Shown one piece after another: positions 42,138 through 44,480 of a DNA stretch of 64,000 nucleotides (positions within the stretch are counted from its first letter, which is position 1; every line of letters starts with the position of its first letter). Under the pieces are notes generated by a model, which was not told where the DNA came from, did no database searches, and saw nothing but the letters and a program-made list of their open reading frames with translations. Origin of the DNA: Planctomycetota bacterium (GTDB taxonomy: Bacteria; Planctomycetota; UBA8108; SXIK01); contig CBDCXR010000004.1 of the NCBI GenBank assembly GCA_965223845.1, positions 3,904,001 through 3,968,000 on the forward strand. Reading direction: 5' to 3'. The position numbers were made by a program, and so were the translations under genes.

Positions 42138-44480
42138 TCACTCCCAGCAGACGTGCGGATCGAAGGTCGGATCTTGACCCGCGGCCACCGGGCCCGGTGC
42201 CGGCGGCTCGTCACCGTCGGCGAAGAGCCAGAGGAGGGAGTGGACCGGATCCGATACGTCCACCGAACCGTCGTCGTTCGAATCGAGCCGATCGAGGCAG
42301 CGAAGGCCGAGCGGCCCGCCGCCGCGCGAGAAGAGCCCGTTCAAGGTGTTGATCGCGTCGGCGACGTCGACTCCACCGTCGAGGTTCGAATCGCCGCGAC
42401 GGAACGGTCGCGGCGGAGCGAAGCGGGCCATCTCGACCCAGTCTTCGAGCTCGCCGAGGCCGACCGTGCAGCGCGCGGTGAAATCGAGGACGAAGAGGTC
42501 GCACTCCTCGGCCGTCCCGCCCTGGGCGAGACAAATCGCGCGGAGGTCCGCACCGCGCTCGGCGCAGAGGGCGTCGGCGGGCAGCAGCCCGACGTCGAGA
42601 CCTCCGGCCATTCCGTCCCCGTCGCCGCCGTCTCCACCATCGTCGCCATCGTCGTCGCAAACCGCGCCGCAGCGCGCGAGGAAACCGTCGACGAGAGCCG
42701 CGCAGTCCTCCTCGCTCCCACCGCGCGAAGCGCAGGCGTCGGCGAGGCGAGCGGCCGCGGCTTCGCAGCGGTCGACGCACGGAGGCGGCGCGGGCGGCTC
42801 ACCGTCACAAGCGGACGAGCAGCCTTCGAGAATCCGATTCCCGAGCTCGGCGCACTCCTCCTCGGAACCGCCGGACTCGGCGCAGCGCGCCATCGCCTCG
42901 CGGGCGATTTGCGCACATCGCTCTTCGCAGGGAAGAGGATCCTCGCCGGCACAGCGAGCGAGGCACACGTCGAGGAATGCGTCAGCCTTGGCGCGACACT
43001 CTTCGGCGTCGCCACCATCGTCCACGCAGGAAGCGAACATGCGCTCCGAGACGTCGCCGCAGCGATCGTCGCAGCTCGGCGGTTGGGGCGGCTCGGGTCG
43101 CTCACAAGCGGCCGCGCACTCCTCAGCGAACTCGGCGGCCTTCGCATCGCATTCGCCCGGATCACCGCCGTCGGCGAGACAGGCCTCACGTACCGCGTCG
43201 GCGCGCCGCGCGCAGCGATCTTCGCAGGTCGGCGGCATCGGCGGCGGCTCTGCGCAGCCTCGGTTGCACGCGGCGAGGAACTTCGCGATGCGCGCTTCGC
43301 ACTCTTCCTCGCTCAACCCGAGTGCACTGCAGAGCCGACCGAGAGCCGGCACTGCGCGATCGCAGCGACTCCCGCAGTCCGGTGGGAACGAACGACGGCA
43401 CTGCCGCACGCACTCGTCGCGAAGAGCGCGCCCTTCGACCTCACAGACCTCAGCTTCTCCGCCGTCCGCGATGCACTGCTCGACCGCGTCGGCCGCGAGA
43501 TCGCTGCATTCGCGTCCGCACGAGGGAGGCGCCGGCGGTCCGTCGCACCGCCCGAGGCAAGCCTCGAGTGCGGTGTCGGCTCGTGCCGCGCACTCTTCCG
43601 CGTCTCCGCCGGCGTCCATGCATGCGGTCACGATGTGATCCCGCACCCTGGCGCAGCGGTCTTCGCAAGTCGGCGGCTCGGGACGATCGCGATCCCCACG
43701 ATCATCGCAAGCGTCGAGACAGCCGCGCAGCGCTTCCTCGGCCGCCGCGGCGCATTCCGCCGGATCACCGCCCGCCTCGAGACACTCGGCCAGACCGGCC
43801 TTGCTCTCCTGACCGCAGAGACCCGCGCACGACGGCGCGTGGAGCCCCTCGCAACCGCGGTGGCAGCTCTCGCGGACTCGCGCTGCGATCGCCTCGCACT
43901 CTTCACCATCGCGTCCGGTGAGCTCGCAAGCGGCCGCGACTGCTGCCGCCGCGCGGTCACAACGATCCTCACACGAGGGTGGAGTCCCGACGCATTCAGC
44001 GAGACACATCTCGAGGTGCGCCGCCGCGTTCGCTTCGCACTCGGCCGGATCGCCGCCTTCGCCCACGCAGGCTTCGCGCATCGCAGCCGCATTCGCGGCG
44101 CACGTCGACGGACAGTCCGGTGGAATCGGTCGATCGCAGAACGCGAGGCACGCGCCCACGGCCTCCTCGACCTTCGCGGCGCATTCTTCTTCCGTGCCGC
44201 CGAGACGCTCGCACATCGTCGCGACGCGCTCGCCGAGCGCTTCGCAAGTCGACGCGCAGTGGACTCCCGGATCGACCGGGTCACCCCCGTCGCACCGCTC
44301 GCGCAGGGCATCGGCCGCCGCGGCACATTCTTCCGGCGTTCCGCCGCGGCGCTCACACTGCGCCTGGAGCGCGTCGGCTGCCTCGTCGCAGTCGATCACG
44401 AACTGGGCCTCGAGCGCGGTCGCGCTGAAGCCAACAATCAAGACTGCACTGCAGAGCGCAGCAGGGATCGAGATTCTCAT
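42138..44480 (-). CDS. Secreted cysteine-rich tandem helical-hairpin repeat protein with C-terminal dockerin-like module
   Basis: GGAGG RBS before ATG 44480; signal peptide MRISIPAALCSAVLIVGFSATALEA; 11 full and 2 partial Cys repeats; C-terminal FRRGDSNLDG..DSNDDG..DPV..LF. Confidence 0.88.
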   Translation of the reverse strand: MRISIPAALCSAVLIVGFSATALEAQFVIDCDEAADALQAQCERRGGTPEECAAAADALRERCDGGDPVDPGVHCASTCEALGERVATMCERLGGTEEECAAKVEEAVGACLAFCDRPIPPDCPSTCAANAAAMREACVGEGGDPAECEANAAAHLEMCLAECVGTPPSCEDRCDRAAAAVAAACELTGRDGEECEAIAARVRESCHRGCEGLHAPSCAGLCGQESKAGLAECLEAGGDPAECAAAAEEALRGCLDACDDRGDRDRPEPPTCEDRCARVRDHIVTACMDAGGDAEECAARADTALEACLGRCDGPPAPPSCGRECSDLAADAVEQCIADGGEAEVCEVEGRALRDECVRQCRRSFPPDCGSRCDRAVPALGRLCSALGLSEEECEARIAKFLAACNRGCAEPPPMPPTCEDRCARRADAVREACLADGGDPGECDAKAAEFAEECAAACERPEPPQPPSCDDRCGDVSERMFASCVDDGGDAEECRAKADAFLDVCLARCAGEDPLPCEERCAQIAREAMARCAESGGSEEECAELGNRILEGCSSACDGEPPAPPPCVDRCEAAAARLADACASRGGSEEDCAALVDGFLARCGAVCDDDGDDGGDGGDGDGMAGGLDVGLLPADALCAERGADLRAICLAQGGTAEECDLFVLDFTARCTVGLGELEDWVEMARFAPPRPFRRGDSNLDGGVDVADAINTLNGLFSRGGGPLGLRCLDRLDSNDDGSVDVSDPVHSLLWLFADGDEPPAPGPVAAGQDPTFDPHVCWE

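Follow-up and report, generated by a model that had tools for sequence, protein, structure and literature searches.

A gene on the minus strand (42138..44480) of a 64,000-nt stretch of DNA from a Planctomycetota bacterium (contig CBDCXR010000004.1, positions 3,904,001 to 3,968,000; this whole stretch is the window referred to below) encodes a cysteine-rich repeat protein of 780 amino acids (aa), P0001. We read P0001, with modest confidence, as a docked, disulfide-locked, polyanionic surface protein with a beads-on-a-string architecture. According to this reading, a very acidic modular chain would be exported by the Sec route into an oxidising extracytoplasmic space, where each 41-residue unit would fold to an antiparallel α-helical hairpin; three nested disulfides would clamp its helices together, or two in the terminal units. 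Two contacts between Ala and a large hydrophobic residue would reinforce the clamp, capping boxes would start both helices and a Gly-Gly turn would end the first one. Short Pro-rich linkers would string 13 such hairpins into a chain resistant to proteases and denaturation, and through a C-terminal, disulfide-stapled Ca2+-type dockerin-like module it would be attached to a partner on the cell surface. As for the role, we tentatively suggest a structural or protective one, as a polyanionic, cross-braced component of the surface or matrix.

The open frame and its translation define the coding sequence (stop codon 42138-42140; third-position GC of 0.76 in the stop-to-stop frame); all coordinates of parts of the gene given here refer to the minus strand. 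A Shine-Dalgarno-like GAGGAGG (44486..44492) was read from the sequence 6-12 nt 5' of the ATG at 44480, and because this site lies just upstream of the ATG, the latter was preferred over the alternative longer in-frame start, a TTG at 44651. From this ATG the product opens with a hydrophobic signal-type sequence, and the relatives begin at an equivalent Met followed by a hydrophobic segment. The signal peptide, MRISIPAALCSAVLIVGFSATALEAQ, covers aa 1-26 (44403..44480; cleavage site approximate). An annotation made in a first pass from the letters and open reading frames (ORFs) alone had called the protein secreted, which agrees with this signal-peptide-like N-terminus and with the N-terminal hydrophobic segment detected by a Kyte-Doolittle heuristic in 106 of 136 Met-starting family members; many of the remaining 30 are truncated gene calls or fall slightly below the heuristic threshold.

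Behind the signal peptide the chain starts with a 4-Cys unit, C-x10-C-x9-C-x10-C, that was found by regular expression and does not have the outer cysteines C1 and C6 (aa 31-63; 44292..44390; predicted helices 31-44 and 49-63). The array of 11 six-Cys units of 41 aa each follows (aa 75-608; 42657..44258; regular expression and AlphaFold2), then an Asp/Gly-rich low-complexity linker (aa 609-638; 42567..42656), most of which lies inside a model segment, 613-634, with a predicted local distance difference test score (pLDDT) below 50. A second 4-Cys unit, likewise without C1 and C6 (aa 639-671; 42468..42566; predicted helices 635-652 and 657-684), comes next, and its second helix extends into a 21-residue connector, TVGLGELEDWVEMARFAPPRP (aa 672-692; 42405..42467), which is conserved among the closest relatives in alignment A3 described below. 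The chain ends with an 88-residue dockerin/EF-hand-pair-like module (aa 693-780; 42141..42404), recognised by the invariant columns of A3 and by profile matches.

The exact pattern C-x3-C-x10-C-x9-C-x10-C-x3-C occurs 11 times in P0001, starting at aa 75, 123, 170, 218, 272, 321, 369, 419, 470, 518 and 568; in 2000 shuffled versions of the protein the mean was 0.0015 and the maximum one. Cysteine makes up 9.9% of the residues (77 in total), and 74 of the 77 are inside the 13 units; of the remaining three, C10 belongs to the signal peptide, C728 and C778 to the C-terminal module. Ten linkers of 6-13 residues, rich in Pro, separate the full units, and the central loop contains GG in 11 of the 13 units. 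The regular expression applied to the translation thus gave the same counts as the first-pass annotation, i.e. 11 complete and two 4-Cys repeats with 74 Cys, and the mostly Pro-rich linkers and the central GG turn in most repeats were also seen as described there. The D/G linker that it had placed after the repeats does exist, but it is located before the last 4-Cys unit. The 3-10-9-10-3 spacing, said to be invariant, is so within P0001 but not across 153 relatives, in which the loop between the two x10 gaps was x9 in 804 tallied cases and 3-26 residues long in most others, and C5 and C6 were separated by x3 in 500 units and by x4 in 376. P0001 has high contents of Ala, Glu, Asp and Gly and shows no enrichment of His (0.9%) or Met (1.3%). 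The mature protein of ~78 kDa has a predicted isoelectric point of 4.2, and 10 of the 11 full units have a net charge between -3 and -7.

Structure prediction gave the unit as an α-helical hairpin with high confidence. When AlphaFold2 was run on one unit together with a 146-row alignment (A2), the model reached a mean pLDDT of 97.2 and a predicted template modelling score (pTM) of 0.76, with helices at 4-21 and 26-44 joined by a four-residue turn. The model of whole P0001, calculated without alignment, had a mean pLDDT of only 64 and a pTM of 0.25, and still contained a helix-turn-helix in 13 of 13 units, e.g. helices 419-436 and 441-459. The block-mean pLDDT in this model was up to 94 in the units and below 50 in the linkers; from the low linker values and the low pTM we conclude that the hairpins would be arranged without confident packing between units. 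The C-terminal module was modelled with low confidence, which makes the whole-chain model uninformative on the dockerin fold. Altogether, the predictions are in good agreement with the antiparallel helical hairpin per unit that had been proposed from the letters.

Alignment A2 consists of 146 units, 13 from P0001 and 133 from relatives' loci that were chosen by the exact Cys pattern, a selection that by itself makes the cysteines of A2 invariant. Helix 1 has conserved small or hydrophobic residues in columns 4, 8, 12, 15 and 19, and helix 2 in columns 29, 33, 36/37, 40 and 44. Capping boxes of the type S/T/D-x-x-E stand at both helix starts (columns 3+6 and 25+28), Gly23-Gly24 ends helix 1, and Pro-Pro precedes the unit. 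Judged from the alignment, the conserved non-Cys columns can all be explained as fold determinants. When the single-unit model was compared with the PDB by Foldseek, 0 matches were obtained at E ≤ 0.001. With VIA-align, which covered 48,161 chains, the best Z was 7.0 and 108 chains had Z ≥ 5, all of them generic helical hairpins in unrelated proteins. These searches point to no specific structural relative, which does not mean that the fold is new.

The interface columns of the two helices are arranged as mirror images, since the paired columns 4/44, 8/40, 12/36, 15/33 and 19/29 each sum to 48. The mirror pairs are C1/C6, C2/C5 and C3/C4 for the cysteines, Ala12 with Phe, Ala or Val36, and Val, Ala or Leu15 with Ala33. 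We then counted how cysteines are lost in the family, using a hidden Markov model (HMM) built from A2 on 154 proteins with no Cys required; 990 domain hits were obtained, 948 of them covering the four inner positions, and a C1 or C6 displaced by one residue or by one helical turn was tolerated. All six cysteines were present in 884 of the 948 units, C1 and C6 were both lost in 45, C3 and C4 were both lost in 6, and 13 units showed a one-sided loss, i.e. 51 paired versus 13 one-sided losses. C2 and C5 were retained in every unit, and the lost C3+C4 pairs were replaced by small or hydrophobic pairs.

The surroundings of the repeat in other proteins and in the genome would suit exported, oxidised proteins. 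Among the 88 of the 153 relatives that were scanned with Pfam, domains above the cut-off were Kazal (6), PKD (7), Dockerin_1 (4), Antistasin (1) and Trypsin (1), and none was found in 66; these co-resident domains are all of extracellular types and several are rich in disulfides. The genome contains one VKOR and one DsbA match, both in a single 466-aa frame (G000:C4:557996-559186, plus strand), which looks like a fused disulfide-forming enzyme. On the basis of the mirror symmetry, the paired Cys losses, the export signals and extracellular fusions, and the VKOR-DsbA oxidase we consider it likely that each six-Cys unit forms three nested disulfides, C1-C6, C2-C5 and C3-C4. The same pairing had been put forward in the first-pass annotation and gains support from the mirror-symmetric columns and from the joint losses of C1+C6 or C3+C4, with the bonds as such being deduced.

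The tether was studied with alignment A3, which comprises 17 C-terminal modules, including those of the closest relatives and paralogues of P0001. It shows two DxNxDGxxD[IV]xD loops and a pair of invariant cysteines, which are C728 and C778 in P0001; a DPTxDxxxC tail stands at the extreme C-terminus. Against PDB sequences the A3 profile matched EF-hand pairs (E 2e-5) and the type I dockerins 2y3n_B, 1daq_A and 2mte_A (E ~5e-5), and its matches to solved dockerins span E 4.8e-5 to 1e-3. Two paralogues have A3-row modules that score 31.9 and 29.2 bits on PF00404 (gathering score 22.9), and the nearest clusters in the ESM Atlas (0.87-0.89, taken as a lead only) are Planctomycetota dockerin clusters; the repeat is matched by no Atlas cluster, and no structure of P0001 was present there. 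Like type I dockerins (PF00404), the module has two duplicated segments of a Ca2+ loop plus helix; it differs from them in that the P0001 copy stays below every Pfam cut-off, in its invariant Cys pair and DPTxDxxxC tail, and in its occurrence in about 300 ORFs of one genome. Judged by these profiles, the C-terminal module of P0001 is a divergent dockerin/EF-hand pair, homologous to dockerin modules. It was annotated as dockerin-like already in the first pass, which holds at the profile level and via the paralogues, but not for P0001 itself when Pfam cut-offs are applied.

The genome has 125 PF00404 matches at E ≤ 0.001 (150 candidates scored), and the P0001 gene is not among them. The A3 profile, run against the six-frame ORFs, detected 317 modules in 298 ORFs (E ≤ 1e-5); 209 of the 317 reach the tail, and 152 of these 209 end at most 12 residues from the stop. 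From the roughly 300 ORFs and the position of most tails near the stop we conclude that the module would be a generic, mostly C-terminal tag of exported proteins. That it docks the chain at the cell surface seems reasonably likely from these sequence comparisons, and the partner is presumably a cohesin-like module; four cohesin matches above the Pfam cut-off are present in the genome. For other Planctomycetes a non-cellulosomal cohesin-dockerin system, the 'planctosome', has been proposed (PMC6461901). With the Cys-stapled dockerin-like tag on ~300 ORFs, this lineage of Planctomycetota may have an extensive, as yet uncharacterised system for docking or sorting, for the study of which P0001 would be a simple cargo. 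One further copy of the module is found in the window (50939-51223, plus strand), inside an ORF (48131-51577) with VWA, FlgE_D2 and CARDB domains. Another dockerin-tagged protein of the window is a PSCyt1 (Planctomycete cytochrome c) protein at 30140-32065 (minus strand), whose Dockerin_1 match is slightly below the cut-off. This PSCyt1 domain and the labels of relatives assign the organism to Planctomycetota.

Several observations weigh against P0001 being a docked, disulfide-locked surface chain. The proposed S-S pairs are deduced from the predicted fold and from sequence, and the Cys-loss tally contains few independent events, as the 45 losses of C1+C6 are mostly inherited first or last units and the 6 losses of C3+C4 represent about two events; despite these few events, the direction of the paired loss matches the prediction of nested pairing. 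P0001 and its last 130 aa gave no Dockerin_1 match, only EF-hand_7 (15.9 bits, E 0.017), which is below the cut-off. The neighbouring genes, GT2, GT4 and a Kdo/WaaP-kinase gene, do not recur beside the closest relatives. A further point comes from the array itself. The repeats within P0001 are on average 26% identical at non-Cys positions (maximum 46%); in the comparison with a relative of 48% overall identity, 8 of the 11 repeats had their best match at the same ordinal position, with 40-57% non-Cys identity. These diagonal best matches suggest that the array is old and collinear and not a recent expansion, each unit keeping its own sequence. Such position-specific conservation counts somewhat against a purely structural role, as it would fit surfaces that are particular to single repeats at least as well as it fits an inert spacer.

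The rival explanation that survives best is built on surfaces of this kind: P0001 could be a multivalent binder or inhibitor, in which specific hairpin surfaces of the docked array capture or inhibit foreign proteins, e.g. proteases. Besides the repeat identity kept position by position between relatives, the fusions to Kazal (6 of 88) and Antistasin (1 of 88) are in line with it, and so is a protein of the same genome with ten Kazal domains that ends in one hairpin unit. Some plant α-hairpinins inhibit trypsin tightly, and their reactive site is located between the two CXXXC motifs (PMC7191063). In the P0001 units, however, the loop between the helices is acidic (Gly-Gly-Asp/Ser-Pro/Glu-Glu-Glu) and has no conserved basic or hydrophobic P1-like residue, and the conserved non-Cys columns are all accounted for as fold determinants. 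The co-occurrence with Kazal or PKD may reflect only the common extracellular location. We regard this explanation as unlikely.

A thiol-lined metal sponge, the alternative offered by the first-pass annotation, we consider more doubtful still. It would keep the 74 cysteines reduced or cycling, so that they bind Cu(I), Zn, Cd or Hg or buffer redox changes, with facing Cys pairs or the C1/C2/C5/C6 quartet as sites, comparable to Csp proteins, metallothioneins or the twin-Cx3C small Tim proteins in their reduced form. The latter can bind zinc, and in Csp proteins a bundle of four helices encloses a core lined by thiolates. P0001 resembles Csp copper-storage proteins in its many cysteines on inward helix faces, and the 9.9% Cys, all on the inner faces of the helices, speaks for a sponge. 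Asp/His-rich tails like those of metal binders occur in two short relatives (L056 and L058), a YHS match that stays below the cut-off is present in one relative, and the designed Cys peptide 2mtq was the best PDB-sequence match of the repeat profile (E 0.015). On the other hand, the number of cysteines per unit is even and strictly mirror-paired, and they are lost in pairs. The Sec-type signal peptide would direct the chain to an oxidising compartment, the genome has the VKOR-DsbA oxidase, and the fusion partners are extracellular only, Kazal and Antistasin themselves being disulfide-rich. The low His and Met contents also fit poorly. Moreover, separate two-helix units are predicted instead of Csp-type bundles, and no sequence match to Csp was seen: P0001 had no Pfam match, hence none to a copper-storage or metallothionein model, and no NCBIfam or PDB-sequence match to such families either. 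A variant, in which the docked chain is an extracellular thiol/disulfide device with 37 facing Cys pairs that open reversibly, and with reduced C1/C2/C5/C6 quartets plus C3/C4 binding soft metals, appears just as doubtful; if true, P0001 would be a tethered, high-capacity metal or redox buffer of the surface on a fold unrelated to Csp or metallothioneins.

A polyprotein precursor, the linkers of which would be cut, as in the multimodular α-hairpinin cassettes of plants, to free up to 13 hairpin peptides with an antimicrobial or signalling function, is highly improbable. The own, conserved sequence of each unit would suit it. The units are, however, strongly acidic in 10 of 11 cases, whereas known antimicrobial hairpinins are usually cationic; the short linkers of PPxPP type show no recurring basic or other cleavage motifs, and the conserved C-terminal docking module suggests that the intact chain is put in place. 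The repeats might also be no real gene product but an artefact of composition or low complexity in a GC-rich frame, an idea favoured by the richness in Ala, Glu, Asp and Gly and by the long open frames on both strands of the region. It is contradicted by the 540 representative proteins with a match to the repeat profile (72 at E ≤ 1e-30), the Shine-Dalgarno site and signal peptide before the repeats, the architecture and C-terminal module, which 10 of the order's 21 genomes have kept, and the very confident AlphaFold2 model, and its probability is negligible.

We next compared the predicted hairpin unit with known systems, of which the plant α-hairpinins come closest. α-Hairpinins (PMC11591084, PMC7191063) and P0001 repeats are alike in that only the Cys framework is conserved. 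The α-hairpinins and their multimodular precursors (EcAMP1, Sm-AMP-X, Tk-AMP-X; nigellin-1.1 with six Cys) have a helix-loop-helix with nested disulfides formed from a CX3C on each helix, which corresponds to the predicted hairpin and the proposed disulfides of P0001. The definition given in PMC11591084 is C1-X3-C2-Xn-C3-X3-C4 with n = 4-20, or C-X3-C-X3-C-X4-20-C-X3-C-X3-C. P0001 falls outside this definition, as its outer CX3C pairs are 31 residues apart and not 4-20. The third Cys pair of P0001 sits beside the turn, 10 residues in from each CX3C, whereas it is 3 residues away in the CX3CX3C of the α-hairpinin 6C motif. P0001 also differs in having no detectable sequence relation to α-hairpinins, a bacterial host, acidic units, Pro-rich linkers without sign of processing sites, and a dockerin-like tail. 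Because of the different motif and the missing sequence relation, the unit would work like an α-hairpinin without being a member of that family, and the module is probably a convergent bacterial counterpart of the plant cassette.

Similar reasoning applies to the helical hairpins of mitochondria. Published descriptions of the twin-CX9C (CHCH) and twin-CX3C (small Tim) proteins present them, like the proposed unit, as helical hairpins with nested disulfides, a dedicated oxidase and a periplasm-equivalent compartment. They have two disulfides instead of three and other spacings, and they are single-domain eukaryotic proteins folded by Mia40, none of which is known to form a tandem array. In the P0001 unit the sole x9 gap spans the turn (C3-C4), and inside the helices the cysteines are spaced by x3 and x10, which does not correspond to twin-CX9C. 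Thus, when the first-pass annotation likened the unit to α-hairpinins or twin-Cx9C proteins, it was right about the predicted hairpin shape, but P0001 has neither of the two Cys motifs.

The thionins (viscotoxin, crambin; PF00321) share with the repeat the succession of a helix, a C-x9-C with a Gly-rich turn and a second helix, and viscotoxin C1 aligns exactly there; besides it, the designed peptide 2mtq is the only PDB-sequence match of the repeat profile at this turn. In thionins, C16-x9-C26 is a disulfide across a helix-turn-helix; these proteins also have a β-sheet and a different overall Cys framework. Partial Pfam Thionin matches, covering profile positions 7-30 of 46, were found in two relatives, but P0001 had no Pfam match at E ≤ 1 and the repeat profile matched viscotoxin C1 with an E of only 0.18, so that membership in PF00321 is not indicated. 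By analogy, the match at the C-x9-C Gly-Gly turn can be taken as a precedent of shape. The neurotoxin B-IV of Cerebratulus lacteus (1vib), a small helical hairpin, ranked eighth in Foldseek, with a template modelling score of 0.67 on the query over 43 columns and E 7.3. Neurotoxin B-IV has four disulfide cross-links. As the match is not significant and the neurotoxin is a single-domain animal toxin, the likeness is one of shape only. The disulfide-stapled α-hairpin is thus already known as a kind, and what is new is this bacterial repeat module. It represents a small, well-delimited extracellular module of 41 residues, for which three nested disulfides are predicted. Neither Pfam nor NCBIfam has a model of it, no relative has been solved, and it could serve as a very stable miniprotein scaffold.

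The repeat proved to be rare and outside the curated families searched. P0001 had no match in Pfam-A or NCBIfam at E ≤ 1, including the GC-type dockerin model NF041540, and no PDB-sequence match. The A2 profile, run against PDB sequences at E ≤ 10, found only 2mtq, viscotoxin C1 and the HNH endonuclease domain protein 4ogc (E 0.87), none of which is significant. Neither the protein nor the repeat profile thus belongs to a named bacterial family in these collections, in line with the first pass, in which none had been recognised, and literature searches turned up no description of this bacterial repeat. The envelopes of planctomycetes are reportedly rich in cystine and proline; this old report could not be confirmed and is not used as evidence here.

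A word-indexed search with whole P0001 returned 12 relatives, all unnamed or 'hypothetical' and one labelled Planctomycetota. Among 1.84 billion representative proteins the A2 profile matched 540 at E ≤ 0.001; the number falls to 283 at E ≤ 1e-10 and to 72 at E ≤ 1e-30. The best match, P0014, is a hypothetical protein of a Bradymonadia metagenome-assembled genome (MAG) with 2649 aa, 44 repeat stretches and 14% Cys; on account of this source the repeat is not confined to Planctomycetota. Within the phylum, 4 of 401 sampled genomes had the repeat, all in the order of the window's genome. In this order it was present in 10 of 21 genomes (3 of 3 in family f1, 3 of 3 in family f2, 3 of 14 in family f3, and 0 of 10 in one small-genome genus), several of the genomes being incomplete. 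The window's own genome has four more repeat genes, two for long arrays with the same tail, one for a variant with a longer loop and one for the Kazal protein. The last one (G000:C4:313573-315468, minus strand; locus L027) encodes a secreted protein of ten near-identical Kazal domains with the single six-Cys unit at the end.

When the species genomes were searched at the DNA level with P0001, 90 pattern matches were obtained and none was confirmed. A degenerate DNA pattern for PPTCEERC gave 24 stretches in the species genomes, 13 of which encode the repeat and 11 of which are chance matches in unrelated genomes. According to their titles, nine of the 13 repeat loci are from Planctomycetota/Planctomycetia and the other four from 'uncultured bacterium', Bradymonadia, Deltaproteobacteria and Coxiellaceae MAGs. 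The genes from the Deltaproteobacteria and Coxiellaceae MAGs (L056:3049-3858 and L058:5743-6705, both on the plus strand) encode short proteins that start with a signal of lipoprotein type, contain four pattern matches each and end in an Asp/His-rich tail resembling a metal binder. The Cys regular expression also brought up a 126-codon frame (G000:C4:6415805-6416182, plus strand) that consists mostly of long poly-Cys runs and is probably a (TGC)n-type DNA repeat.

Downstream of the P0001 gene and on the same strand lie the GT2, GT4 and Kdo/WaaP-kinase genes. The search of the 168-bp gap to the GT2 gene (41970-42137) revealed no minus-strand site resembling a terminator, so that co-transcription with these genes is possible. 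As the neighbours do not recur and no operon is conserved around the closest relatives, the neighbourhood gives no functional link. O-glycosylation of the Pro-Pro-Ser/Thr linkers by GT2/GT4 was considered and dropped, those genes being absent beside the relatives. In 3 of 16 relatives' loci (L031, L038 and L039) a DsbA-like gene (Thioredoxin_5/DSBA) is located 1-2 genes from one paralogue group, which sits among phosphorylase, PRPP-synthetase and CN-hydrolase genes; the proximity to DsbA is suggestive but may be plain synteny. No RNA run was listed with the P0001 stretch, and the whole stretch is contained in four DNA-type runs of one study. Upstream of the P0001 gene there are two small unknown ORFs and a gene for an FHA protein, and after the upstream gene at 45271-45915 a strong terminator-like hairpin (45218-45191, minus strand) of 12 pairs, 9 of them G-C, is followed by a T-run.

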